A stretch of 55,293 bases of DNA. Origin: an uncultured Nitrospirota bacterium. GTDB taxonomy: Bacteria; Nitrospirota; Thermodesulfovibrionia; Thermodesulfovibrionales; CALJEL01. Location of the stretch: NCBI GenBank assembly GCA_947085365.1, contig CAMTWD010000070.1:1-55293 (forward strand). Direction: 5' to 3'. This document shows, piece by piece, positions 1-38,508 of this stretch. The translations under genes were made by a program, and so were the position numbers. The notes beneath the pieces were generated by a model that was not told where the DNA came from, searched no databases, and worked only from the letters and a program-made list of their open reading frames with translations. How positions within the stretch are numbered: the stretch's first letter is position 1; each line of letters begins with the position of its first letter.

Positions 1-192
1 CAGCTTTCTCATTGCCTCATAATGCCAGTGTTTAAGCATTCTGCCTGATACTGCCGGAGCTTCTTGTCTCATACCATCTTCGTCAAGGAACTCCATTATT
101 CTTATGTCAGTCACATTCCCTGCTACTGCCTCATTGTTGAGGTCGTGGACATTTAACTGAGTTTTTACTGCAAAAGTTACAAATTTAAGCAT
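1..192 (-). CDS. cas7: Cas7 (type I Cascade backbone subunit, DevR/Cst2-like), 5' fragment; the gene continues past the window start
   Basis: Not in the ORF track because it is open-ended. ATG at 192-190 has AGGAGG 6 nt upstream. All 64 codons to position 1 are open. Translation MLKFVTFAVKTQLNVHDLNNEAVAGNVTDIRIMEFLDEDGMRQEAPAVSGRMLKHWHYEAMRKL shows the Cas7 N-terminal pattern. Confidence 0.65.
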   Translation of the reverse strand, partial: MLKFVTFAVKTQLNVHDLNNEAVAGNVTDIRIMEFLDEDGMRQEAPAVSGRMLKHWHYEAMRKL

Positions 193-202
193 ATGACACC
201 TC

Positions 203-553
203 CTATTTTAATGATCTTTCCCTTATTTTATTTTCTTCAATAATTATAAATTTGTTTTCTAAATCAAAAACCTTCTCAAAAACTTTAATAAGGTTGTCCT
301 TTATAAGATTTAAAGATTCAGGATGTATCCTTAAAAGAATAACACCGTTGCTTTTCTTTCCTTCTTTTACAACCAGTTCTCCGAAATCCTTGTCAAAGGT
401 AATTAGAATCCTTTTTTCCTTTGCAGATAAATTTAAGACATCCAAATCTTTCATTCCTTTTTTTACTTCATCAACCCTCAAAATATCATGACCTAATTTT
501 CTTAATTCCATTATCACGCCCATAGGAAGATTTTCGTTAGCAAGGAATTTCAT
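203..553 (-). CDS. PIN-like DUF5615 (Mut7-C-like) protein, putative toxin of a DUF433/DUF5615 pair
   Basis: 116 aa. MKFLANENLP...ILITFDKDFGELV resembles DUF5615. The start overlaps the stop of the DUF433 gene by 4 nt. Confidence 0.6.
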   Translation of the reverse strand: MKFLANENLPMGVIMELRKLGHDILRVDEVKKGMKDLDVLNLSAKEKRILITFDKDFGELVVKEGKKSNGVILLRIHPESLNLIKDNLIKVFEKVFDLENKFIIIEENKIRERSLK

Positions 554-798
554 AAAACAAAAACCTTCTCCTCTTTCAAAATTTCAAGGCTATACTCTAT
601 GGCAGCGAGGATGTCTTCTTTTTGAAGTTGAGGGTAGTTTTTTAAAATTTCTTCTGTGCTCCATCCAGAAGCAAGAAGTTCAAGAATAAACTCTACTGAA
701 ATCCTTGTGCCTTTTATAATCGGTTTACCCACCAAGACCTCGGGATTTATTTCTATTCTATCCTTGTATCGCATTGGAAACCTCCTGGATAGGCTCAA
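550..798 (-). CDS. DUF433 protein, putative antitoxin
   Basis: IEINPEVLVGKPIIKGTRISVEFILELLASGWSTEEILKNYPQLQKEDILAAIEY is the DUF433 signature. The likely true start is the internal Met (MRYKD) at 774. Confidence 0.65.
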   Translation of the reverse strand: MSLSRRFPMRYKDRIEINPEVLVGKPIIKGTRISVEFILELLASGWSTEEILKNYPQLQKEDILAAIEYSLEILKEEKVFVL

Positions 799-2224
799 TC
801 TTTATTGTTTTATAAGACTCAAAGCTAAATGCAAGTAAATATAGAGTCGTGATGACTTGGTGAAAAGATTCTTCATCTGACTGCATTATGTGATTAATCT
901 GTTCAATATCATCTGGATGCGGAAGATGAGGAGGATTCCCATTTGGTTTATTTTTTTCCTGGTCATATCTTAATTTCGCTTCTCTTATCAATTTCTCAAA
1001 TATCTCTCTTACATCTTTGAACGTTTTGGCATTTCTTAAGCCATCTGCAAAAGAATAATTTTGATGGTCCTTATTCCAGACAAAATAGCCTAAGGTTTTT
1101 GCGATAGACCTTACTGCTTTGTTTTTAATTATCTCTTCCTTAATCATTCCAACCTCCTTTAAAAGATATTTTGCTGTTTCTGGGTATAAAAGATTAACAT
1201 AGTTATTTGTTGATGTTTCTTGCACATAAAGGCGGGCAAATTTGGGTAAATTTTTCTTCTCCGAATACTCCAGAATGTTAGTTATTTCAACTAATGATGA
1301 TATTTTGGGCGAATCACTTAATAATTTTATTATCGTAGCAGAATTATACGGTGAGTCCGAAATGAACTTTGAAAACGGTAAAGCATTTACAAAAGCAGTC
1401 TGCTCAACTACTGTGTCTCCTCTGTTATCTTTGGATAACAATGATAAATGAAATTTCAATTTTAATTCATTGACTATATCACTCAAAGAGGGAACTTTTG
1501 CTAAAAGACCGATAAAAAATGTTCTCAAAGGTTGCAAGTCAGAAAGCCAGAAATTATGCAATGTTTTTTGCAAAGCCAGTAGAAATTGCAAATCATCAGT
1601 TGAAAGATTTTCTTCAGGAATAGGCAATACAATTACATATTTTCTATTTTTCCCTTTACCCAATTGTATATTAAAACCAAAAGAATAAAGTCCCAATACA
1701 GCTAAATACCCACAAATTTCACACAGTCCGAGATTGAATGTATCAGAGCGTTTATCTCTCTCGTAAGGCTTTCCAGCGTGAAAAGAGGAAAGTAATATTA
1801 ATCCGCTTCTTCCACCGAATCTTGGAATTTTATCATGTCCACAAAATGTTTTTCTTTTAAAATCGAAATCTAAAACGGCTCGCTCATTAAATATCTGATG
1901 AAAATTAACATTTTTCCTTTTTAATTCGTTTATAATTTTCTCATCAGCAGAATATTTTGTCTTATCCTTTGCCTTAACTCCTAAATCAAAAAATCTATCT
2001 GCAGATAAAAATCTTTGAAGAAACATTAAAAAAGTATCTGATGCTTTGGTAGAAGAATAATGGTTGTAGGAGACTTGATAAAAACCTTTCTGGGGCACTA
2101 ATTGAACTTCAAACCCTGCCTCTATTCCCACTCTTGCCAGTCCGTAGGCAATTTTGATTTCTAAATCGGGAAAGCCTGTGGCTGGTGTATAAAGAGTTAT
2201 CATTTTATTCCTCTGGTAAATCAA
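758..2224 (-). CDS. cas8: Cas8-like large subunit of a type I (I-B/I-A-like) effector complex; exact family undetermined
   Basis: About 480 aa, sitting between cas3 and cas7 in the operon. It has a Cys cluster (FCGHD...LCEICGY). The assignment rests mainly on position. The Met at 2203 (MITLYTP) has an AGAGGA SD and is the probable start. Confidence 0.45.
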   Translation of the reverse strand: MIYQRNKMITLYTPATGFPDLEIKIAYGLARVGIEAGFEVQLVPQKGFYQVSYNHYSSTKASDTFLMFLQRFLSADRFFDLGVKAKDKTKYSADEKIINELKRKNVNFHQIFNERAVLDFDFKRKTFCGHDKIPRFGGRSGLILLSSFHAGKPYERDKRSDTFNLGLCEICGYLAVLGLYSFGFNIQLGKGKNRKYVIVLPIPEENLSTDDLQFLLALQKTLHNFWLSDLQPLRTFFIGLLAKVPSLSDIVNELKLKFHLSLLSKDNRGDTVVEQTAFVNALPFSKFISDSPYNSATIIKLLSDSPKISSLVEITNILEYSEKKNLPKFARLYVQETSTNNYVNLLYPETAKYLLKEVGMIKEEIIKNKAVRSIAKTLGYFVWNKDHQNYSFADGLRNAKTFKDVREIFEKLIREAKLRYDQEKNKPNGNPPHLPHPDDIEQINHIMQSDEESFHQVITTLYLLAFSFESYKTIKIEPIQEVSNAIQG

Positions 2225-2588
2225 AATATTCTCTTATAATCTTTCTTATCTTTTCCATTATTTTTATACATTCCTCAGCTTCGTCTTTTGACACTTCGTA
2301 GCCAGGATATCTTATGTCTACAGCATAGGTTGAAAGCATAGTTAATTCTTTTCTATATTCTTGTAAATTTGGTAAAAATTTTACACAATCCTTAAGTAGA
2401 ATGTTTAAATCGTGGATTTTTTCAAACTCAATATTGTTCTCTTGTAGTATCGCCTTCATGTATTTTTCAACACATTGTTGAGCATGAAAACAAATTACAG
2501 ATAAAAGTTTCATCTCTGGTTTTAATTTATTAACTGCCAAATAATCTTCTTCTGCTTTTTGAATCCACTCTTCAGTAGATTTTTTCAT
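2205..2588 (-). CDS. HEPN domain protein (partner of the upstream MNT domain)
   Basis: 127 aa. WIQKAEEDYLAVNKL...FHAQQCVEKYMKAIL...IHDLNILL...AVDIRYPG is the HEPN (PF05168-like) pattern. The start overlaps the stop of the HD-MNT gene (ATGA). Confidence 0.7.
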   Translation of the reverse strand: MKKSTEEWIQKAEEDYLAVNKLKPEMKLLSVICFHAQQCVEKYMKAILQENNIEFEKIHDLNILLKDCVKFLPNLQEYRKELTMLSTYAVDIRYPGYEVSKDEAEECIKIMEKIRKIIREYFDLPEE

Positions 2589-3661
2589 AAAACTCTCCCG
2601 TCTCTTAAAATTTTCTTTATAAAAAAATCTCCCATTTCTATTCTTTCTTCTATTTGTTGGGGTGTTCTCACTATAATATCTATCGGAATCGTGTCTTCAA
2701 GTTCATAACGAATTAAAGCAGCCTGTTTTCTCACAGGAATGTCTGTATCCATTATTACAAGTAAATCTATATCACTACTCCTTTTAGGAGTTCCATATGC
2801 ATAAGAACCAAAAAGAATTATTTTTTGAGGATTAAACTTTTCTTTTATCTTTTTTGCAATTGCTCTAATTTGCAGGTTATCAACATATCTTTTTATATTC
2901 TCAACCATTAACCATCCTCCGTAGTAGTCTTTATCAGGATCTTTTTGATATTCCTTTCTTTCAGTGGCAGCAGAGACATCGCATAATTTCAATATGTGGT
3001 GACATAAAGAAGCCTGAATTCTTTTTTTGTGCTGTTCAATGATGCGATCTCCTTTTGCCCATTTTCTTAAACCACGCGCCATTTCTTTTAAATCAGATAC
3101 AGTCAATTTATCATAGCCTTCAGGAAATATTTCTCTATCCAATTCTTTGAGATTATCTTCCCATACAATATTTCCATTAAAATCCACAATCCCCTCCAGT
3201 ATTGCCTGCACGTCTGGTCTTTCAATATTGTCCCCTAAAAGTCCTTTGTCTGTATGGTGAATGGCAACTGCGAAACTTACAGGGTTTTTGATGTCATCAG
3301 GAAGAATTTTCCAAAGATAACCTGCACCAATAGAAGCATGAGAAGGAAGAGGTTTATTAGTTCCTATATTTTCCTGCCATTTTTGTATAAGTTTTCCAAT
3401 GTCATGAAACTTTATCATTTTAGAAAGAGCATCTTTTATAATAGATTCATCTTGGATACCAAGTATGCGTTTTAATGTAGGAATGAATACAGGACAGACG
3501 ACTTCAAATTTTTCCATACACCGTTTTATATGGTCTGTATAATTTTCGTTAGGAGCGCTATATAATAAAACACTCATCAGGACAAACCCCCACTTCTTTT
3601 TTATAATATGCTCCATATAGCAAATAGACTCTGAATGGACCAACCCTTTTATCTTTCTCAT
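2585..3661 (-). CDS. cas3'': Cas3'' HD nuclease fused C-terminally to a minimal nucleotidyltransferase (MNT) domain
   Basis: The N-terminal part carries Cas3 HD motifs FHDIGK, SHASIGA, AIHHTDKG and LKLCDVSAA. The C-terminal ~100 aa carry ILFGSYAYGTPKRSSDIDLLVI...IDIIV (pol-beta-type NTase GS...DxD). The first 28 codons overlap cas3, so the probable start is MSVLLY at 3577. Confidence 0.7.
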   Translation of the reverse strand: MRKIKGLVHSESICYMEHIIKKKWGFVLMSVLLYSAPNENYTDHIKRCMEKFEVVCPVFIPTLKRILGIQDESIIKDALSKMIKFHDIGKLIQKWQENIGTNKPLPSHASIGAGYLWKILPDDIKNPVSFAVAIHHTDKGLLGDNIERPDVQAILEGIVDFNGNIVWEDNLKELDREIFPEGYDKLTVSDLKEMARGLRKWAKGDRIIEQHKKRIQASLCHHILKLCDVSAATERKEYQKDPDKDYYGGWLMVENIKRYVDNLQIRAIAKKIKEKFNPQKIILFGSYAYGTPKRSSDIDLLVIMDTDIPVRKQAALIRYELEDTIPIDIIVRTPQQIEERIEMGDFFIKKILRDGRVL

Positions 3662-5228
3662 CTATCTTTCTTTCGTTACCCAATATATCATTAACCACAA
3701 GTTTGTGTTTATTTTCCTTCTCATCGTATTCCCACTTCATCTCCCATCTTATATAGTTTTCTTTAAAATACTTCCATATCACTCCAACATCTACATCTAA
3801 TGAATGTTCCTTTAAATAATCCGGATTATTCTCTAAAAACTTCTTTATTTCTTCTTTTTTATTCATTACCGATTCTGGTAATACTACTAAAGTTGCTGGT
3901 TTACCATCTCTCAACTGTATATTTTTCGGCTCAGTATCTGCATACAAAACGCATTCATAAAGGTCAATCAATGTATCTGCTGCTTCAAAGTCATTGGCTT
4001 TATAATCAAGGAGATTTACAAATTCACAGGCTGCAGTGAAGTTTTTTATATCAAACTTAGAATTTTTCGTTAACCAATCCAGAGTTATATCAATATGTGC
4101 TTTTTCATAAGGCTTGTAACTTTTCTTTTCGTTCTCCAATGGGAAAATAATCATCTCGCCTTTTTCTCCTTCATATCTTGCACATCTTCCTGCCCTTTGA
4201 ACCAGACAATCTGCTGGAGCAATCTCTGTAAGAAGCAGTTCTGCTGAGAAATCTATACCTGCTTCAAGAACCTGCGTTGATACAACTATTCCTACACCTT
4301 CTGGAATAATCATTTTCCCATCTTTTTTATGAGGAATTAATGAAAGGGCTTTCTCTTCGTGCTCTTTTCTGTCAGCCCTTGTAAATCTTGAATGTAAAAG
4401 AACAATTTCATCATCCTTTAGTTCCAGTATATTTTTCAACTCTTCATAAACTATCTGCGCTCTTTTTACCTGATTAAGGACAATAAGGGTTTTTTTGTTT
4501 TTAATTTTTTCCAGCAATTCTTGTGAAATATTAACATTTCCTTGTTCATATAATGGGAAATCAGATAAAGAAATTTTAAGTTCAGAATTTACCACAACAT
4601 CACCTTTTATGATGTTAGAAGACTTTATGTGTATATTTTCAAAAAGACTATTCTTCAAACCTTCAGGCATAGTCGCTGTCATCAAAACAAAAGGGATTTT
4701 ACTTTCATACAGAATCTCCATTAAAGCACGCATTATAGAAAAGGTAAACTCATCCCTGTACATATGCGCCTCGTCAAAAACAACAAGGGAGGAAGCAATA
4801 GAGCCAGCAGGAATATCTAAATGATGACCAACCTGATGACTTGACCTTGCAAATCCGTAAAGAAACTGGTCGAGTGTCGTAACAACTATATCAGCAATAA
4901 AAAAGGGAGCGTTCGGAACATCTCCATGTTGAATTTCAACCTGAATAAACGGTGAGATTTTCTGTGCATATTTTCTTATTCTTTCAGCCACACTGTTTAC
5001 CAGAACCCTCATGGGCAAAACATAGATTAAACGGGGAGCAATTGAGAAATTGTTAGTAATAAACTGTTCCAAAAATGGAGCTATTATTGCCTCAGTCTTT
5101 CCAGACCCAGTGGGTGCTTTTATTAGCAATGGAAACCCTCCATTTTTAACTGCTTCCCATACATCTTTTTGATGTTCAAATGGCTCATGAATTTGGAGAT
5201 ATGTTGCATAAAATTCTTTAATATCCAT
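3558..5228 (-). CDS. cas3: Cas3 (Cas3') SF2 helicase
   Basis: Helicase motifs KAPTGSGKTEA, VFDEAHMY, MTATMP and QRAGRCAR; 556 aa. It sits between cas6 and the HD gene. Confidence 0.85.
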   Translation of the reverse strand: MDIKEFYATYLQIHEPFEHQKDVWEAVKNGGFPLLIKAPTGSGKTEAIIAPFLEQFITNNFSIAPRLIYVLPMRVLVNSVAERIRKYAQKISPFIQVEIQHGDVPNAPFFIADIVVTTLDQFLYGFARSSHQVGHHLDIPAGSIASSLVVFDEAHMYRDEFTFSIMRALMEILYESKIPFVLMTATMPEGLKNSLFENIHIKSSNIIKGDVVVNSELKISLSDFPLYEQGNVNISQELLEKIKNKKTLIVLNQVKRAQIVYEELKNILELKDDEIVLLHSRFTRADRKEHEEKALSLIPHKKDGKMIIPEGVGIVVSTQVLEAGIDFSAELLLTEIAPADCLVQRAGRCARYEGEKGEMIIFPLENEKKSYKPYEKAHIDITLDWLTKNSKFDIKNFTAACEFVNLLDYKANDFEAADTLIDLYECVLYADTEPKNIQLRDGKPATLVVLPESVMNKKEEIKKFLENNPDYLKEHSLDVDVGVIWKYFKENYIRWEMKWEYDEKENKHKLVVNDILGNERKIDEKDKRVGPFRVYLLYGAYYKKEVGVCPDECFII

Positions 5229-5231
5229 CTT

Positions 5232-6014
5232 TTAATTTCTCTCCCCTTTCCATTTTACCTCATTGTGTTTTTCCTCCCACACCTCTATACATCCAAAGCC
5301 CTGGCTGTTTTTGGAGCCCAGGCCTGATTCAAAGGCCATCCTGAACAGTTCCTCTGGAAGTTCAAGTTGATAAAGACCATCCCATCCTTTTATCACTGTA
5401 TTCTTGTAGATTACTATCCTCTCATTCCTTGAACTGACCCTGTAGGGCTTCACGCTTCCGCCCTCAATATCCCTGCCCGTCCATGTTCGGACCTTCCTCT
5501 GGAGATTCCTGATTATGAGGGATTCAAAATCCTTCTCAAAGGGATTGTAGTAATAGGTCTTCTTTCTGCCATCAGGTGTAAGGAGGGTGCTGTAAACAGT
5601 AATTGGAGAAATCGCCTTAACAATGATTTTTTCTTTATAGGCTGGGACAGGCTCAACCTCTACAGCTACAGGTGTCAATGTCTCTCCTGCAAGACAGACG
5701 GTTCCCCATCTCAAGAGATTTGACGCAAAGGACTGAAGAAATTCGTTTAGAGGAGAAGATATTATAACTGTGATAGATCCTTGAAGAAATATCCTACCAT
5801 CTTCCACTCTGGCACCCTTCTCGGGTATGAGGCGAGAAAAGGTGAAGAGTTTTATCCTTCTTTTACTCAATGGATCCTTGTGGCCTGAATCGTGTATCTT
5901 CTTTGAAAGGTATTCATCAAGGTGTCTGTAAATAAAGGCTTGAACAACACCATTATAATGGCATGGAAGGATAAGATAGGATTTCTCAGGTTGAAATCTT
6001 ATCTTAAGCCTCAA
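5232..6014 (-). CDS. cas6: Cas6 CRISPR RNA endoribonuclease
   Basis: 260 aa with FTFSRL and the C-terminal glycine-rich motif GLGSKNSQGFGCIEV. TTG start has an AAGGAGGG SD. Its GC is clearly higher than that of cas3. Confidence 0.85.
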   Translation of the reverse strand: MRLKIRFQPEKSYLILPCHYNGVVQAFIYRHLDEYLSKKIHDSGHKDPLSKRRIKLFTFSRLIPEKGARVEDGRIFLQGSITVIISSPLNEFLQSFASNLLRWGTVCLAGETLTPVAVEVEPVPAYKEKIIVKAISPITVYSTLLTPDGRKKTYYYNPFEKDFESLIIRNLQRKVRTWTGRDIEGGSVKPYRVSSRNERIVIYKNTVIKGWDGLYQLELPEELFRMAFESGLGSKNSQGFGCIEVWEEKHNEVKWKGERN

Positions 6015-6075
6015 AATCCCTCCTTGAAGGATAAATTAATTAATTTAATAATCTGATGTCAAGCCCAGTGGGCTT

Positions 6076-6090
6076 ACAATCGTGATGCCA
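6076..6090 (-). promoter_or_regulatory. sigma54-type -24/-12 element upstream of cas6 (TGGCATcacgaTTGT)
   Basis: Minus strand reads CTGGCATCACGATTGT. GG and TTG are at canonical spacing; the -12 C is replaced by T. It lies 76 nt upstream of the cas6 start. Confidence 0.35.
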
Positions 6091-6148
6091 GGTTATATCA
6101 GGGGGTGAAAAGGTATTCCCTCCAAAATATCCCTTTGCCGAGTATCTA

Positions 6149-6162
6149 CTGTTACCTCGCCA
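6149..6162 (-). repeat. Dispersed repeat copy (variant ATGGCGAGGTAACAG on the minus strand)
   Basis: Plus strand ctgttacctcgcca. This is the leftmost copy, in the flgL-cas6 intergenic region. Confidence 0.7.
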
Positions 6163-6235
6163 TTTATCGGGATTGGAAACTAAGCAGTGTAAATAGTCCT
6201 CGTCTGAGAAGTGCCGGAGAAGAGGTAAAGTGATC

Positions 6236-7297
6236 TTATTTCAGGAAGTCCAGAAGAGAGCTTGAGAGGACCTTTATTGATGCAATCCTGAGGGCCTCAA
6301 GGCTCGTCTCTGCCTTTTTTATCTCAACAGCAACCTCTGTGAGATCGGCATCCTCTGTCTTTGAAAGATTGTTCTTAAGGGTATTCAGGATGGTCTTTGT
6401 CCTCTCTGTCTCATCCTTGAGGAATGCCCTTCTCGTGGCAAGTTCTGTCTGCCTCTGCAGGACTTGTGTCCGTGCATCGTCTATGATTGGGGCGAGGGCC
6501 TCAATGCGATGCATCGCCCTTGTCTCGCCAATGGATGTGCCATCCAGATCCTCGTATCTCCAGGCATGGCTCAGGAGATTCGCTATCTCCATTATATTTC
6601 TCACTGCAAAGATATCGTGCGCTGGATGAAGGGGGTCACCAATCTCAATAGTGATGGTATTTATCCCTGTAGAGGGGTCATAACTCTGGATATATCTTAC
6701 TGGTGTGCCATCAGATAGATTTGAGGGGATTGATCCCTTGAGAACAAGACTGAAGATCTTTGAGCCAGGTATATTTACTGAAACAGTGGTTGAATTATTA
6801 ACAGGAATCCCCATCTCACCAAGATCACCCTGATAATCATAGGCGAATGTTGAAGGATTGTAGATGAAGGCCTCTCTGTCCGTCCTGAAGCCAGAGAATA
6901 TAAATCTATCTAAGAACCTTGAATTCACAAGTGCGTAAAGGGAGTCCCTCAACAGACCTGCCCGCTGAGAGTTAAATTCCCTTGCCATTGAATCCTGTGG
7001 ATTGATACCTGAGGAGGTGAGTTTTCTGAGCTCCAAAAGGGTATCGGCCACCGAACCTAATACCTTATCAGTAAATTCGAACTGAAGGTCTCCTCTATTA
7101 ATATTTCTGAGATACTGTTCCCTAAGGGATATCTCAATCTTGTAATCAATTGATCTTGAGGTAGATATTACATCATCAGAGGGCTTCAGTATCTTTTTGC
7201 CTGTGGCAAGCTCATCATTTCTTCTGGAAAGCTCCTGAAGGACATCCTGAAGACCCTTCCTGATCTGTTCATATATTATAAGTGAGGATATCCTCAC
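6236..7297 (-). CDS. flgL: Flagellar hook-associated protein 3 (FlgL)
   Basis: MRISSLIIYEQIRKGLQ...LATGKKILKPSDD N-terminus and a flagellin-like C-terminal helix. It follows flgK. Confidence 0.85.
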   Translation of the reverse strand: MRISSLIIYEQIRKGLQDVLQELSRRNDELATGKKILKPSDDVISTSRSIDYKIEISLREQYLRNINRGDLQFEFTDKVLGSVADTLLELRKLTSSGINPQDSMAREFNSQRAGLLRDSLYALVNSRFLDRFIFSGFRTDREAFIYNPSTFAYDYQGDLGEMGIPVNNSTTVSVNIPGSKIFSLVLKGSIPSNLSDGTPVRYIQSYDPSTGINTITIEIGDPLHPAHDIFAVRNIMEIANLLSHAWRYEDLDGTSIGETRAMHRIEALAPIIDDARTQVLQRQTELATRRAFLKDETERTKTILNTLKNNLSKTEDADLTEVAVEIKKAETSLEALRIASIKVLSSSLLDFLK

Positions 7298-27924: not shown

Positions 27925-29124
27925 TTATACGAAGATACTTATGCCCGAAGGGCCTTCTGAATTGCTTAAAAAGGGATTCTGGCAAGATGCCGATTCAAGG
28001 GTTTTGAAACCATCCCTGATAATCCTCTTCTGTTCTGGTGTGATCAGATCATCTCTGTTTCTACCTCCTATATCTACGGCAAGATTACCTACTGTTAAAC
28101 CCTCTTTGATGAGCACTGAGGTTATATGAGGTAGATTTATCTTTATCAGATCAGCCGTAACAGGATCAGAGGCATTTATAGATCCGTTAATAACTCCTTT
28201 CTGAAGGCTCAATCTTATATGAAGCCTTCCAAGCTCCTCTTGGTCAATAGAGACCCTTAGAACCCTGATCTCCCCTTCCATGCCTTTATTATCAATCCAT
28301 TCTATTACCTGATGCCACTTAACTTCATGAGATTGCATCCCCTGAGATTTCTCTCTTACTGTTACTTCGCCACTAAGTGGGGTAGAGAGATTTTCGGAGA
28401 TTATGTTGAAAAAACTGTTTTTATCACTGCTACTGTCACCTCGCCACCCACTGTTACTTCGCCACCAATCGGATGTAAAGATATCGGTCTGCTTACTGTC
28501 AATAGATTCTCCCTTCTTATCCTTCTGGTCTGAAAGGTAAAATATACCCGTCTCTTTAACTGTTACCTCGCCACTAACTGTTACCTCGCCATCTGCTGTT
28601 GGATCAGCAGGAATCACCTCAGGGAAGATAACATCCCCTTTATTCTTTAAAGAGGGAATGGGAGGAGAGACAGGACTTTCCAGGTTCGTTAAAACTGTTA
28701 CCTCGCCACTAGAAACTGCCACCTCGCCACTAAGTAGTGATAGGGAGCTACCAAGGGTGTTATCCGGTCTTGAGGGTGAAGTAGATGATCCACCATTATT
28801 TAGATGAGACCCTACGGGTGGAGTGCCCATCAGGAGGGATGTGGCCTCATCCCCCTGAGGTGAGGGCATATAAGGGAGATTCCTCCTATCCACCTTTATA
28901 AGGGAGGCCTCACCGTTACTTTGCCACTTACTGTCATCCTTACTTAGTCCGGGGTAACTGTCAGAAAGGTCCAAGAGGGCCTCAAAAGAGACCCTGACAG
29001 ATGTGGGAGGTCTCACAGAGTGGGGTACCTCACTTAGTGGCGAAGTAACAGTTGTGAGACCCCCAACTGTTATTTCGCCACCTATAGATGAAAGGGCTTC
29101 GACCACATCAACCATAAGATTCAT
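27925..29124 (-). CDS. fliK: Hook-length control protein FliK
   Basis: C-terminal Flg_hook-type region (LGRLHIRLSLQKGVINGSINASDPVTADLIK). Position is between the ylxF-like gene and flgD. About 10 repeat copies lie in the N-terminal two-thirds. Confidence 0.75.
   Translation of the reverse strand: MNLMVDVVEALSSIGGEITVGGLTTVTSPLSEVPHSVRPPTSVRVSFEALLDLSDSYPGLSKDDSKWQSNGEASLIKVDRRNLPYMPSPQGDEATSLLMGTPPVGSHLNNGGSSTSPSRPDNTLGSSLSLLSGEVAVSSGEVTVLTNLESPVSPPIPSLKNKGDVIFPEVIPADPTADGEVTVSGEVTVKETGIFYLSDQKDKKGESIDSKQTDIFTSDWWRSNSGWRGDSSSDKNSFFNIISENLSTPLSGEVTVREKSQGMQSHEVKWHQVIEWIDNKGMEGEIRVLRVSIDQEELGRLHIRLSLQKGVINGSINASDPVTADLIKINLPHITSVLIKEGLTVGNLAVDIGGRNRDDLITPEQKRIIRDGFKTLESASCQNPFLSNSEGPSGISIFV
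28359..28373 (-). repeat. Repeat copy inside fliK
   Basis: ctgttacttcgccac; encodes SGEVTV. Confidence 0.85.
28433..28465 (-). repeat. Two repeat copies 18 bp apart inside fliK
   Basis: ctgtcacctcgccac at 28433 and ctgttacttcgccac at 28451. Confidence 0.85.
28560..28592 (-). repeat. Two repeat copies 18 bp apart inside fliK
   Basis: ctgttacctcgccac at 28560 and ctgttacctcgccat at 28578. Confidence 0.85.
28695..28730 (-). repeat. Two repeat copies 21 bp apart inside fliK
   Basis: ctgttacctcgccac at 28695 and ctgccacctcgccac at 28716. Confidence 0.8.
28913..28927 (-). repeat. Variant repeat copy inside fliK in the third forward frame
   Basis: ccgttactttgccac encodes WQSNG. The flanking TAG of the consensus reads AAG here. 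Confidence 0.6.
29009..29081. repeat. Inverted repeat pair with GAGACC modules inside the fliK 5' end
   Basis: ggtctcacag at 29009. gtggcgaagtaacag at 29037-29051, then ttgtgagacccccaa, then ctgttatttcgccac at 29067-29081. Confidence 0.8.
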
Positions 29125-29136
29125 GCATGGAGAATA

Positions 29137-29151
29137 TCAAAATCTATGCCA
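29137..29151 (-). promoter_or_regulatory. sigma54-type element (TGGCATagattTTGA) abutting the fliK start codon
   Basis: Minus strand reads CTGGCATAGATTTTGATATTCTCCATGCATG. The ATG lies 27 nt from the T of TGGCAT, identical to flgF. The -12 C is replaced by A, and there is no SD. Confidence 0.4.
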
Positions 29152-29153
29152 GG

Positions 29154-29267
29154 ACTTAGTGGCGAAGTAACAGTACTTAGTGGCGAAGTAACAGTATGAA
29201 ATTGCCCTGAAAAGAATATTTTTCTAAAAAGGTGAAGAGACCGGGAACTGTTACTTCGCCACTAAGT
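29154..29267. repeat. MITE-like 114-bp unit: two direct 21-mers plus one inverted 21-mer
   Basis: acttagtggcgaagtaacagt at 29154-29174 and 29175-29195. actgttacttcgccactaagt at 29247-29267. Confidence 0.85.
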
Positions 29268-29277
29268 AAGGAAATTT

Positions 29278-29808
29278 TTACCTCAATGGAATCCTTTTCC
29301 TCTCTTCAGCTGTTACTTCGACACTAAGTGCAGAGAGGTGCTTTGTAATTGCTGCCACCTTTGAGGGGTCCATTGTGGCAAGGATTGCACCTGCCTTTCT
29401 TGGTCTCATCCCTTTTAATATCCTGGCAGCCCTCTCCTCTTCAATGGCCGAGAGTCTTATCCCTGCCTCTTCTGGGGGCATAGACTCATAAACCTTTACG
29501 AGATACTGCAGATCCTCTGACCTCTTCTGTTCTATTCTGTCCAGGAGGGCATTTATCTCTTTTAAAAGCTCTGAATATCTCTTAATCTTCTCATCGAGCT
29601 CCTTTTTAAGGGCTTTGAGCCTTTCTTCTTCTATCTTAAGGGCTGCCTCCCTTTCGTCAAGTGCCTTCTGCCTTTTCTGGATGAGCGTCACCGGATCATC
29701 CTGACAGTAAAGTAGGTCAGGTAAGAGGAGAGAGAGAACAAAGATGATAGCTCCAAACTTAGTGGCGAAGTAACAGTACTTAGTGGCGAAGTAACAGTTC
29801 CTACTCAC
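29278..29808 (-). CDS. YlxF/MotE-like protein with an MgtE-N-type domain
   Basis: PPEEAGIRLSAIEEERAARILKGMRPRKAGAILATMDPSKVAAI. Position between fliJ and fliK matches Bacillus ylxF. The N-terminus carries two CYFATK repeat translations. Confidence 0.6.
   Translation of the reverse strand: MSRNCYFATKYCYFATKFGAIIFVLSLLLPDLLYCQDDPVTLIQKRQKALDEREAALKIEEERLKALKKELDEKIKRYSELLKEINALLDRIEQKRSEDLQYLVKVYESMPPEEAGIRLSAIEEERAARILKGMRPRKAGAILATMDPSKVAAITKHLSALSVEVTAEERKRIPLR
29310..29324 (-). repeat. Variant repeat copy near the 3' end of the ylxF-like gene
   Basis: ctgttacttcgacac; encodes SVEVTA. Confidence 0.7.
29762..29797 (+). repeat. Two repeat copies 21 bp apart at the 5' end of the ylxF-like gene
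   Basis: gtggcgaagtaacag at 29762 and 29783. Confidence 0.85.
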
Positions 29809-33213: not shown

Positions 33214-34729
33214 TCCATCCCTTTATAAGCTGGGCAGCCTTTTGAGGATTCTTCCTTGCCCATTCAAGGATGTCAGGTCTTCTAATACCTTGTAGCTCCA
33301 TAGCCTTCTCAATCTCAGCGACAGTGGCAGGGACCTTCATCTCGACCCTCCTGACGGGAGTTGTAATTGCCTTTATAATCGGCCTTATAACGAAAAGAAA
33401 GAGTAGTATCAATCCAAGAATGGGAAGAGAATATTTCGCAACAGTAATCACTACAGGCACTATCTCCTTTGAGACATCTGGTCTCTCTTCAATCATTATG
33501 GGCTCCTCAGTGAAGGGCATATTGATAACCCTCACATCATCCCCCCTTTCAGCAACGAAACCAACCGCATTCTTTACCATCTCTTCAAATCTCTTCATCT
33601 CCTCCTCTGTCCTCGGGATATATTTCTTCTCCTTTGTTCCCTCTGCCTGGATATAAGTGCCATCCACAAGGGCAACAACTGTAAGCCTCTTTATCTCACC
33701 AGGTGCCACAACTGTATGACTGACGGTCTTGCTTATTTCATAATTAACTGTCTCACTCTTCTTTTCACTGTAAGAGGTTGCAGAAAGGGCTGTCCCGGTC
33801 TTTCCAGGTATATTGGAGGCCACCCCAGGGATACCACCCGGTGCGGTCCTGTTGGTCTTCTCTGTGATCTTCTGTTCACTCCTGGCGACCTGACTCTCTG
33901 GGTCGTATCTCTCCTCTGTCTTCTCGATCTTTGTAAAATCTATCTGTGCAGAGACCTTTGCCCTTACCTTACCCTTACCCACAACAGGCTCCAGTATTGC
34001 CACAACCCTATCCTCAAGGGTCTTCTCAACAGTCTGCTGGAATTCCAGCTGATTCTGGGTAAGGGCAATAAGTTCACCTCTTCCGGGAGAGGAGAGCAAT
34101 GTGCCACTGCTATCCACTACTGTCACATCTTCAGGACTGAGCCCATCCACGCTGCTTGCCACAAGGTGGACGATCCCCTGAATCTGGGACTGGGAGAGCC
34201 TTCTGCCAGGTCTTAATTTTAAAAAGACTGACGCCTTTGGCCTCTCCCCCTCCTTAGCAAAGAGACCTTTTTCAGGGATTGCAAGATGGACCCTGCAGAA
34301 TTCCACCTCCTGAAGACTTCTTATTGTCCTTGCAAGCTCTCCCTGAAGGGCCCTCTGATAATTGAGTCTCTGGACAAAGTCCGTCATGGTAAAGTCTCTT
34401 TTATCAAAGATCTCAAATCCGACCCCTCCTCCCTGTGGCAGACCCAGGGCTGCCAGTTCGAGCCTGAGGCTATAGACCCTGTCAGAAGGAACCATTATCC
34501 CACGGGATGTCACGCGATAAGGAACCCTCATCTCTTTAAGTTTCTGGATTATCTGTCCGCTATCCTCATCAGAAAGGTTTGTATAGAGGACCTGATATTC
34601 CATCTCCCTTGACAAGAAGGCAAAGAGGATGATACCTCCGAGACTCACGGCAAGAACCACAAGAAGGGCTACCTTCTTTTTTGGCTCTAAGGAATTAAAC
34701 CATTCCTGTATCTTCTTAATCATTGCCAA
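33200..34729 (-). CDS. fliF: MS-ring protein FliF
   Basis: 509 aa with LEPKKKVALLVVLAVSLGGI TM segment, EDSGQIIQKLKEMRVPY and RALQGELARTI motifs. Confidence 0.95.
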   Translation of the reverse strand: MAMIKKIQEWFNSLEPKKKVALLVVLAVSLGGIILFAFLSREMEYQVLYTNLSDEDSGQIIQKLKEMRVPYRVTSRGIMVPSDRVYSLRLELAALGLPQGGGVGFEIFDKRDFTMTDFVQRLNYQRALQGELARTIRSLQEVEFCRVHLAIPEKGLFAKEGERPKASVFLKLRPGRRLSQSQIQGIVHLVASSVDGLSPEDVTVVDSSGTLLSSPGRGELIALTQNQLEFQQTVEKTLEDRVVAILEPVVGKGKVRAKVSAQIDFTKIEKTEERYDPESQVARSEQKITEKTNRTAPGGIPGVASNIPGKTGTALSATSYSEKKSETVNYEISKTVSHTVVAPGEIKRLTVVALVDGTYIQAEGTKEKKYIPRTEEEMKRFEEMVKNAVGFVAERGDDVRVINMPFTEEPIMIEERPDVSKEIVPVVITVAKYSLPILGLILLFLFVIRPIIKAITTPVRRVEMKVPATVAEIEKAMELQGIRRPDILEWARKNPQKAAQLIKGWIEER

Positions 34730-34784
34730 CTGTTACCTCGCCACTGGTACTGTTACATCGCCACCAAGACTGTTACCTCGCCAC
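34730..34784 (-). repeat. Three tandem repeat copies with 20-bp period, filling the fliE-fliF intergenic spacer
   Basis: ctgttacctcgccac at 34730, ctgttacatcgccac at 34750 and ctgttacctcgccac at 34770. Confidence 0.9.
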
Positions 34785-34789
34785 TGAAT

Positions 34790-37297: not shown

Positions 37298-38508
37298 GAG
37301 GTCATCTCCTTTAGTGGCGAAGTAACAGTTGGTGGCGAGGTAACAGTTACTCCCTGGGAGACCTCATCACTGAGAAGGGATGGGATAGAGAGGATAAAGG
37401 TGGTTCCCTCACCAGGTCTGCTCTCCACATTTATAAATCCACCGTGAGCCTGGACTATCCTTGCTGTAATGGTAAGACCGAGACCTGTGCCAGTAGGTTT
37501 TGTTGTAAAGAATGGATCAAATATCCTATCAATAATCTCAGGTTCAATACCTGTACCGGTATCCTTGATGATAAAGGAGGTATATCCACCATCCTCTTTG
37601 AGATCAACGCTTATATTCCCACCCTCAGGCATTGCCTGGATAGCATTTATAAAGAGGTTCAGGAGGGCCTGCCTCAGGAGATCACCGTCAGCCATGAGAA
37701 GAGGATCTTTATCGGTCACATCTATCTGGACATTGCTGGATCTCAAGATTGGGTCGATGATCTCCAGGACGGACCTAAGCAGGTCTCTGAAGGTGATGGG
37801 CTTAAGGTTTACCCTCTCAGGTCTTGCAAAGATTAGGATATTCGTTAAGATATTATTTAGTGTTCTTATCCCTGATGTGATACCCCTTGAAAGATCCTTC
37901 CCTTTTTCGCTCAGTATCTCATGCTCCAGCATAGTGGCAAAAAGTTCGATACTGCAAAGGGGATTCCTTATCTCGTGGACTATCCTTGCGGCCATCTCAC
38001 CCATGGCTATCAACCTCTGATTCCTTTCATGTTGCATCTCCAGTTCTCTGAGCCTTGTAATATCTTTTATGATGATGACCTCTCCGATGAGATCTCCATC
38101 GCTCACAACAGGTGCACTGGAAAGGATAATGTTCCGCCTCTTCCCATTTGAATAAAGGACAGCCTCTGGACCTTCCCGGTTTATAGAGAAATCCATCTCC
38201 GAAAGACCTCTGCCAAGGACCTCCTCAGCCCTCACACCAAAGAGTTCTTCAGCGGAATGATTAATCATTATTATCCTCTCCTGAGGATCTATCACGACCA
38301 TCGCCTCTTCCATGCTCTGGATAATGGCATTAAGAAAGTCCCTATTTCGCTCCACCTCCTTCAGGGCAGACTCAAGGGCAGAGTTTTTCTTCTGGACCTC
38401 CTCTGTAAGAGACCTTATCTTCTCCTGAAGAGATGCATAATAGGACTCAAGACTCTTTGATGCCTTTGTAAAGTTATCAAAGGCCTCATTGAGAAGCTTC
38501 AGATCCAT
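37294..38508 (-). CDS. Sensor histidine kinase (PAS-HisKA-HATPase; FleS/FlrB/FlgS-like)
   Basis: H-box HEIRNPL, N/G boxes ([21 protein letters not shown]). The C-terminal tail TVTSPPTVTSPL is encoded by two repeat copies. Confidence 0.9.
   Translation of the reverse strand: MDLKLLNEAFDNFTKASKSLESYYASLQEKIRSLTEEVQKKNSALESALKEVERNRDFLNAIIQSMEEAMVVIDPQERIIMINHSAEELFGVRAEEVLGRGLSEMDFSINREGPEAVLYSNGKRRNIILSSAPVVSDGDLIGEVIIIKDITRLRELEMQHERNQRLIAMGEMAARIVHEIRNPLCSIELFATMLEHEILSEKGKDLSRGITSGIRTLNNILTNILIFARPERVNLKPITFRDLLRSVLEIIDPILRSSNVQIDVTDKDPLLMADGDLLRQALLNLFINAIQAMPEGGNISVDLKEDGGYTSFIIKDTGTGIEPEIIDRIFDPFFTTKPTGTGLGLTITARIVQAHGGFINVESRPGEGTTFILSIPSLLSDEVSQGVTVTSPPTVTSPLKEMTS
37314..37346 (+). 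repeat. Two repeat copies 18 bp apart forming the C-terminal tail of the kinase
   Basis: gtggcgaagtaacag at 37314 and gtggcgaggtaacag at 37332. Confidence 0.85.

Follow-up and report, generated by a model that had tools for sequence, protein, structure and literature searches.

Cas3'' of type I-A CRISPR-Cas systems is an integral Cascade-associated subunit, as seen in the P. furiosus structures. CreTA is reportedly a pair of RNA toxin and RNA antitoxin whose repression needs Cascade, and is said to safeguard CRISPR-Cas. Here, a 55,293-nt stretch of DNA from an uncultured Nitrospirota bacterium (contig CAMTWD010000070.1 of assembly GCA_947085365.1; hereafter the window) was analyzed, in which a minus-strand gene encodes Cas3'' joined in frame to a C-terminal minimal nucleotidyltransferase (MNT) domain and overlaps a HEPN gene. 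The gene arrangement is that of the type VII toxin-antitoxin systems HepT/MntA of Shewanella, Aphanizomenon and Legionella, where the gene of an MNT with a GS...DxD motif directly precedes and overlaps a small gene for HEPN; the toxins of the characterized type VII systems are HepT-family HEPN proteins with an Rx4-6H motif and an acceptor Tyr (PMC7641770, PMC11586414, PMC13000451). Makarova et al. (PMC2701414, section 20) described the insertion of such MNT-HEPN cassettes into unrelated operons and emphasized that their mechanism was unknown. Arrangements already known include toxin-antitoxin modules within CRISPR loci, MNT and HEPN fused in a single chain, and Cmr1-MntA; for type III-B an MNT joined to a CRISPR effector subunit has been solved structurally (PDB 9z7q, 9z7v, 9z7x). 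No description of a Cas3''-MNT fusion was found in a full-text literature search, in agreement with the initial annotation of the locus, by which it is not known as a described Cas3 architecture. Cas3''-MNT and its HEPN partner form a recurrent and conserved wiring, apparently not described before, of a toxin-antitoxin-like pair onto a CRISPR effector.

Domain organization of the fusion protein

The fusion gene was first listed as an open reading frame (ORF) of 358 aa at 2585..3661 on the minus strand. Because the database protein P0001 and all homologues begin at ATG 3577, the true start is almost certainly this codon, which yields a protein of 330 aa (MSVLLYSAP..., 2585–3577) overlapping the preceding cas3' gene by 20 nt; the start at 3661 lies 28 codons too early, with an overlap of about 100 nt, and was corrected. 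The Cas3'' part spans aa 1–234 (2876..3577, minus strand), with the C-terminal end ...GGWLMVENIKRYVDN, and the MNT part, which belongs to group A as defined below, spans aa 235–330 plus the stop codon (2585..2875, minus strand).

The initial annotation had read Cas3 HD motifs in the N-terminal part of this ORF and a minimal nucleotidyltransferase in its C-terminal part, and profile searches bore out both, the HD, NTP_transf_2/MNT and HEPN assignments all clearing curated cut-offs. The HD domain passed NCBIfam cas3_HD TIGR01596 marginally (44.4 bits, cut-off 43.45; aa 44–228) and scored 50.8 bits with the PADLOC Cas3a2/Cas3-HD profile. The fusion has 346 homologues, many of them annotated as Cas3'', and residues H58, D59, H80, H107, H108 and D200 of the HD motif are invariant in alignments of 71 and 34 sequences. 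Sequence and fold matches of the HD part in the PDB are the P. furiosus type I-A Cas3-HD (7tr8_Q, 7tra_Q, 7r2k_Q) and MJ0384 (3s4l), and the top Foldseek matches also include 8wth. Like type I-A Cas3'' of P. furiosus and M. jannaschii (MJ0384), the window protein has a full HD motif and adjoins stand-alone Cas3' and Cas8a/Cas11, and its HD part is 60–69% identical to unfused Cas3'' orthologues in Thermodesulfovibrio, Hydrothermia, WOR-3 and others. Unlike stand-alone type I-A Cas3'', it has about 96 aa more at its C-terminus, forming a domain that extends the last helix of Cas3''.

This added domain matched PF01909 NTP_transf_2 at 53.3 bits (cut-off 21; aa 265–356 of the 358-aa ORF) and PF18765 at 41.3 bits. 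The motif GSYAYG...SDIDLL is present, G257, S258, D269 and D271 being invariant among 34 fused homologues and D300 conserved in at least 90% of them. Fold matches by Foldseek were MNT antitoxins and minimal nucleotidyltransferases (8xeo, 8xeh, 7ae9, 7bxo, 2rff, 1no5).

Unfused Cas3'' stops about 7 aa after the segment ...GGWLMVENIKxYVDN, and in alignments the fusions run on from exactly that point. The sequence of the junction is conserved, and a start codon for the MNT part is not. The Met in ...GGWLMVENIK..., preceded by GGAGGA, was considered as the original MNT start and rejected, this segment being the conserved C-terminus of unfused Cas3''. An AlphaFold2 (AF2) model built from 71 homologues is confident (pLDDT 89.5, pTM 0.86) and has a defined inter-domain geometry, with a single unbroken helix at aa 221–248 leading from the last helix of Cas3'' into the first of the MNT.

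HD and nucleotidyltransferase domains form classic pairs of opposing activities, as in GlnD and class II CCA-adding enzymes. By this precedent, and given the defined geometry in which the model (pTM 0.86) sets the two domains, the nucleotidyltransferase could nucleotidylate HEPN and the HD domain of the same chain could act as a phosphohydrolase that strips the modification, so that activation of Cas3'' would switch HEPN on. The HD domain is, however, an ordinary orthologue, 60–86% identical to unfused Cas3'', which indicates no new specificity, and such a writer-eraser scheme appears very improbable.

Occurrence of the fusion

Full-length fusions, 327–364 aa long and 46–74% identical, made up 35 of the 120 best homologue clusters; the remainder are unfused Cas3'' proteins, roughly 240 aa long, of Thermodesulfovibrio, Hydrothermia, WOR-3, Omnitrophica, Desantisbacteria and others. 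A sample without bias toward fusions was provided by 80 metagenome loci, because the profile that retrieved them covered the HD domain only: 14 were fused and 66 unfused. Among 1.8 billion representatives, a profile search found only P0111 spanning the HD and MNT domains; fusions cannot be counted in this way, since fused and unfused proteins fall together at the 50% identity used for clustering. When GTDB species representatives, a set in which the window's own genome is not included, were scanned with a profile of the junction plus MNT, mainly stand-alone MNTs were returned and one fused locus only (L005, CAZJHL010000031.1). This locus comes from a metagenome-assembled genome labelled Candidatus Micrarchaeota, and its remaining cas genes are bacterial-like, which may reflect misbinning or transfer across domains. 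Public records name the fusions only "Cas3''" (e.g. MEW6482672.1), a plain annotation that hides an additional enzymatic domain.

A sequencing or assembly frameshift wrongly joining cas3'' and the MNT, named beforehand in the initial annotation as a possible cause, is refuted by the same in-frame junction in dozens of independent assemblies and 35 protein clusters, together with the lack of a conserved MNT start codon; the chance of such an artefact is practically nil, and the fusion is genuine. One neighbouring analogue does differ between assemblies, Cmr1 and an MNT being separate in locus L003 and fused in L004. The 'LQIR/LQNK' tails of the unfused proteins P0088, P0108 and P0120 were considered as MNT remnants and rejected, the DNA showing that the tail is the end of cas3'' running across the start of cmr1.

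Fused loci whose downstream DNA could be read have a PF05168-type HEPN gene that begins 3–58 nt ahead of the stop codon of the fusion, and this gene is intact in 15 of the 18 evaluable loci. It is gone in L090 (1753–2894), where a 95-nt gap is followed by a gene for a Cas8-like protein of 607 aa, cut down to 68 aa in L141 (1789–1995) and split in two in L100, and the MNT is kept in all three. Decay of HEPN with retention of the MNT is the typical toxin-antitoxin pattern.

Two cassette types at one junction

Two subfamilies of fused MNT were distinguished. Group A, to which the window belongs, comprises 17 clusters and has a short linker; group B comprises 18 clusters and retains a longer N-terminal helix. 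MNTs share 69% identity in group A and 58% in group B, and only 31% across the two groups. In group A the MNT is conserved at least as strongly as the HD domain (69 versus 64% identity). The HEPN partners co-vary with the MNT group, that of the window being 62–69% identical to other A partners and 28–32% to B partners, so entire cassettes differ and not the MNT alone. Relatives occur outside cas loci: stand-alone MNTs from unrelated loci, paired with HEPN, are 59–67% identical to the group A MNT, and such stand-alone pairs were found in Omnitrophota, Elusimicrobia and Desantisbacteria, with HEPN identities of 50–65% (65% between the window HEPN and one stand-alone partner).

Both types of cassette join the C-terminus of Cas3'' at the same point. 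No separate A- or B-type MNT or HEPN_T gene was found directly after cas3'' in any of 68 unfused loci (the 66 of the metagenome survey plus L084 and L085). On a tree of HD domains, A-fused, B-fused and unfused forms are thoroughly interleaved; for instance, the HD domain of P0016_A is 86% identical to that of unfused P0108 and 83% to that of P0050_B, and the corresponding values for P0003_A are 81% (unfused P0068) and 80% (P0021_B). Such interleaving reflects either repeated gain and loss of the cassette or recombination spreading fused 3' ends; either way, the cassette has moved with respect to the nuclease, though it is always found in frame. It has the features of a toxin-antitoxin-like mobile module, namely two small overlapping genes, a patchy spread and close stand-alone pairs elsewhere.

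The module could simply be a selfish passenger, one of several mobile modules in the tight junctions of this cas operon. Insertion at a stop/start overlap would then have produced the fusion incidentally, as a tolerated side effect without consequence for CRISPR function, and recombination would have spread it. Mobility is indeed high among MNT-HEPN modules, which can insert inside operons (PMC2701414, section 20); closely similar pairs stand alone outside cas loci, the same operons carry other inserted modules, and the fusion is both patchy (14 of 80 loci) and accompanied by HEPN decay in 3 of 18 loci. What this account leaves poorly explained is that two unrelated cassette types were joined within the same residue window with the split arrangement in none of the 68 unfused loci, and that lineages sharing 46–74% identity have kept the MNT catalytic residues and the helix at the junction. 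It is also at odds with the recurrence of the same C-terminal fusion logic on Cmr1 and on restriction-modification (R-M) subunits, described below. On balance, passive carriage of this kind is somewhat unlikely.

The HEPN partner

The HEPN gene (2205..2588, minus strand; 127 aa) starts within the stop of the fusion, the two overlapping as ATGA, as the initial annotation had described, and a Shine-Dalgarno-like run, GGGAGAG, lies 4 nt upstream. The protein matched PF05168 (HEPN_T/COG2250) at 101.9 bits (cut-off 22), covering 115 of 117 profile positions, and its lone sequence match in the PDB was 1wol (E = 3.5e-6). Conserved motifs are FHxQQxxEK, HDL and RYP. Position +5 after the conserved R is E or D in partners of group A, and partners of group B read RYPDALPG. 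A conserved Tyr stands immediately after the R.

MNT domains on other defence proteins

Composite loci (L001–L004 and L086) carry an entire Cmr (III-B) module downstream of HEPN. One of these, L004, encodes after HEPN a RAMP-MNT fusion of 444 aa, followed by a HepT-like gene. The fusion matches PDB chain 9z7q_I, deposited as "Cmr1-MntA", with E = 7e-118; a paper for PDB 9z7q was not found in the full-text literature search. The HepT-like partner has the canonical RNxLVHTY motif (RNFLVHTY), that is Rx4H plus Tyr, and matches PDB 1wty, 8xdj and 1jog. Cmr1-MntA thus resembles Cas3''-MNT in having the MNT on the C-terminus of an effector subunit with an overlapping HEPN-superfamily gene next, and both lie in composite I-A/III-B loci (L003/L004, L101 and L157), with Cmr1-MntA placed two genes after Cas3''-MNT/HEPN. 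Unlike Cas3''-MNT, its carrier is the RAMP subunit of an RNA-targeting complex, its MNT belongs to a different subfamily and its partner is a canonical HepT-like protein. Moreover, Cmr1 and its MNT occur both split and fused, whereas Cas3''-MNT was seen fused only. In two assemblies of a nearly identical contig, Cmr1 (328 aa) and MNT (120 aa) are separate (L003, 11385–12720) or joined (L004, 11385–12719).

Two further carriers, which came to light in the profile search of representatives mentioned above, belong to R-M systems, namely an Eco57I/TaqI_C-type methyltransferase of 640 aa (L170, 33–2340) and a type I specificity subunit, HsdS, of 605 aa (L171, 1977–4065); both end in an MNT and are followed by an overlapping HEPN_T gene. 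HEPN-T is known to cluster with R-M operons (Anantharaman et al., PMC3710099, Table 1). An MNT at the C-terminal end of a defence protein and a HEPN gene right after it seem to be a recurring design.

Proposed role of the tethered nucleotidyltransferase

The captured MNT-HEPN_T cassette may well be an effector-tethered antitoxin-like module by which control of HEPN is contingent on intact Cas3'', a reading to which we give an even chance. A mobile two-gene cassette would have been captured at the 3' end of a type I-A-like cas3'' and joined in frame, so that the nucleotidyltransferase would be produced solely as the C-terminal domain of Cas3'' and HEPN would be translated from the overlapping next gene. 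Because type I-A Cas3'' is Cascade-associated, the MNT would be tethered to the interference machinery, where it would hold HEPN inactive by nucleotidylylation and/or binding, by analogy with type VII HepT/MntA and Cmr1-MntA. Mutation of cas3'' (nonsense, frameshift or deletion) or disappearance of its product would then take away the neutralizer, an outcome that would safeguard the cas operon by addiction and might provide an abortive-infection backup.

Functional coupling, beyond passive hitch-hiking, is newly supported by the two cassette types at one site, by the absence of split genes beside cas3'' and by the Cmr1-MntA and R-M parallels. Purifying selection on the MNT as strong as that on the HD domain, and a connector predicted to be rigid, point in the same direction.

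Several observations weigh against the proposal. The Rx4-6H RNase motif was not found in HEPN, which in the window protein reads D-I-R-Y-P-G-Y-E, and no match of HEPN to the HepT families PF01934 and PF08780 was obtained at E ≤ 0.1; by sequence, it is of the uncharacterized "thermophilic" HEPN_T type and not of the HepT family. A comparison of HEPN_T with the HepT-like partner of Cmr1-MNT gave an hhalign probability of 2%, too weak to map catalytic positions. The MNT scored 30.9 bits with the MntA equivalog NF047752, below its cut-off of 60. Other two-gene modules are also inserted in these operons (DUF433/DUF5615 in the window; AbiEii-like, PaREP1 and single-chain MNT-HEPN in relatives), and, because cassettes insert widely, selfish insertion alone explains the presence of this one, though it explains the fusion less well. 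Finally, the interleaved HD tree could stem from recombination of one or two ancestral fused alleles and not from repeated selection.

The pair is consequently not established as the HepT/MntA-type toxin-antitoxin that the initial annotation had invoked. Its MNT does fold like the MntA structures 8xeo, 7ae9 and 7bxo; unlike type VII systems, HEPN is of the PF05168/HEPN_T type, without Rx4-6H and without a Tyr two residues after the H, and the MNT, below the MntA cut-off, is a C-terminal domain of Cas3'' and not free-standing. Because HEPN_T has no Rx4-6H and the MNT is below that cut-off, toxicity of HEPN, the chemistry of its neutralization (AMPylation included) and any coupling to interference or target recognition are drawn by analogy. 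The sequences themselves establish the domains, a conserved fusion with intact catalytic residues, strict adjacency of the genes, repeated capture of independent cassettes and the lack of a split arrangement in the loci surveyed.

These same features bear on a different idea, namely that the pair is no toxin-antitoxin but a two-subunit nucleotidyltransferase in which HEPN_T is the helical half that binds substrate, as in kanamycin nucleotidyltransferase. Its role, tethered to Cas3'', would be to modify nucleic acid or protein while interference or primed adaptation is under way; it might add tails or caps to DNA ends made by Cas3, for instance, or regulate a Cas subunit. The lack of Rx4-6H would fit, the H of the HEPN motif being often replaced in PF05168 (PMC3710099, Table 1), and so would the membership of HEPN in a nucleotidyltransferase substrate-binding clan (PMC3710099; PMC2701414), the fold match of the MNT to HI0073 of a 'two-protein nucleotidyltransferase' (1no5) and the strict conservation of the nucleotidyltransferase catalytic residues. 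Nevertheless, the cassette is found by itself and on R-M proteins too, which implies no Cas3-specific substrate; retention of the MNT in loci that have lost HEPN would be odd for an obligate two-subunit enzyme, and the nearest characterized relatives of the MNT fold are antitoxins. Such an enzyme seems quite doubtful.

The tethered antitoxin-like module is comparable to CreTA in that a toxin-antitoxin-like element in a type I cas locus would make loss of an effector gene costly, and differs in that both parts are proteins, linked to the system through covalent fusion to Cas3''. If the tether works, it would be a protein-level counterpart of the RNA-based safeguarding by CreTA and a type I counterpart of Cmr1-MntA, and would suggest a general rule by which antitoxin-like domains are attached to immune effectors to put the integrity or activity of these effectors under surveillance by toxins. 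Single-chain MNT-HEPN proteins (FhepTA, PMC13000451; L086, 7221–7940; L067) likewise have a covalently fused MNT, with control of HEPN presumed in cis, and differ in that their MNT is joined to its own HEPN, whereas the window MNT is joined to an immune nuclease unrelated to it, with HEPN encoded separately. Few two-gene modules in thermophiles rival MNT-HEPN_T pairs in abundance, and HEPN_T has no demonstrated function; the repeated welding of these pairs to a defined partner, Cas3'', gives a testable handle on the function of the cassette.

An extension of the tethering model, which we consider unlikely, is that Cas3''-MNT and HEPN_T function as an accessory arm in type I-A interference. HEPN would be held inactive on or by Cascade-bound Cas3''-MNT and freed or activated on target engagement or on an attack on Cas3'' or Cascade, such as by an anti-CRISPR or proteolysis. 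If so, DNA-targeting type I systems would have collateral RNase activity or dormancy as an output, as types III and VI do, and the C-terminal MNT fusions of Cas3'', Cmr1, HsdS and type IIG methyltransferases would represent a common 'guard' design by which HEPN toxins keep watch over the intactness of immune effectors.

Operon layout and genomic setting

The location inside a type I cas operon, as given by the initial annotation, was confirmed by the adjoining cas6, cas3' and cas8a-cas11 genes. The order on the minus strand, densely packed between 203 and 6014, is cas6, cas3', the Cas3''-MNT fusion, HEPN, cas8a-cas11 and DUF433/DUF5615. The first gene, cas6 (5232..6014), opens a low-GC cas island and matched Pfam Cas_Cas6_C (118.5 bits), Cas6_I-A and NCBIfam cas_cas6 (117 bits). 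It is followed by the stand-alone helicase gene cas3' (3558..5228; TIGR01587 cas3_core, 209 bits; Pfam DEAD and Cas3-like_C_2; PADLOC Cas3a1, 242 bits). Downstream of HEPN, the ATG of cas8a-cas11 (758..2203, minus strand) lies 1 nt past the HEPN stop. This gene encodes the large and small Cascade subunits as one 481-aa protein, identified with PADLOC and NCBIfam profiles (PADLOC Cas8a (I-A), 342.8 bits, aa 1–332; PADLOC Cas11, 150.4 bits, aa 334–472; NCBIfam Csa5 at the C-terminus, 30.6 bits); its 454–472-aa equivalents in related loci are nearly devoid of Pfam signal. The hallmarks of type I-A are therefore present in the window: split cas3'/cas3'', Cas8a and Csa5/Cas11. No CRISPR array, cas7, cas5 or adaptation genes were found inside the window, and the operon continues past its left end. 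In the related loci L085 and L087–L089, cas7-cas5(-cas4-cas1-cas2) lie downstream of cas8. The layout of L088, cas6-cas3'-fusion-HEPN-cas8a-cas7-cas5, is like that of the window, and L087 and L089 have cas1-cas2-cas3'-fusion-HEPN-cas8-cas7-cas5-cas6b with a WYL regulator.

Directly after cas8a-cas11, at the place of cas7 in related loci, stands a pair of genes with a 4-nt overlap (203–798, minus strand): a DUF433 gene (550..798; PF04255, 91.9 bits), the antitoxin-like half, and a DUF5615 gene, PIN-like or Mut7-C-like (203..553; PF18480, 87.7 bits; weak Mut7-C and PIN_10 matches). This pair looks like a second toxin-antitoxin-like insertion in the operon. Modules inserted between cas6 and cas3' in relatives comprise a single-chain MNT-HEPN protein of 239 aa in L086 (7221–7940), an 84-aa gene plus an AbiEii-like nucleotidyltransferase in L001 (7459–8287) and a PaREP1 (HEPN-family) gene in L084 (313–648). 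A promoter and terminator scan of positions 1–6400 gave 21 hits against 21.6 expected by chance and 4 against 4.2, respectively, and supported no internal promoter for the cassette.

The G+C content of the cas operon is about 33%, against 44–47% in the remainder of the window, which suggests horizontal acquisition. The edge of this low-GC island (window 1–6200) adjoins an flgL-like gene at about 6014–6236, and flagellar genes lie to the right of the operon (FlgK/L-like ORFs, FlhA, FliF and FliI). The closest named relatives of FlhA, at 65–68% identity, come from metagenome-assembled genomes of Thermodesulfovibrionales/Nitrospirota, by which the host would probably be an uncultivated member of the Nitrospirota. 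Among the flagellar and regulatory genes, a motif of 16–21 nt, ACTGTTACCTCGCCAC (reverse complement GTGGCGAAGTAACAGT), recurs in small tandem pairs at seven places (28432–28466, 28557–28591, 28692–28732, 29150–29196, 29757–29798, 34729–34787 and 37314–37348), and may be a regulator-binding or REP-like element.

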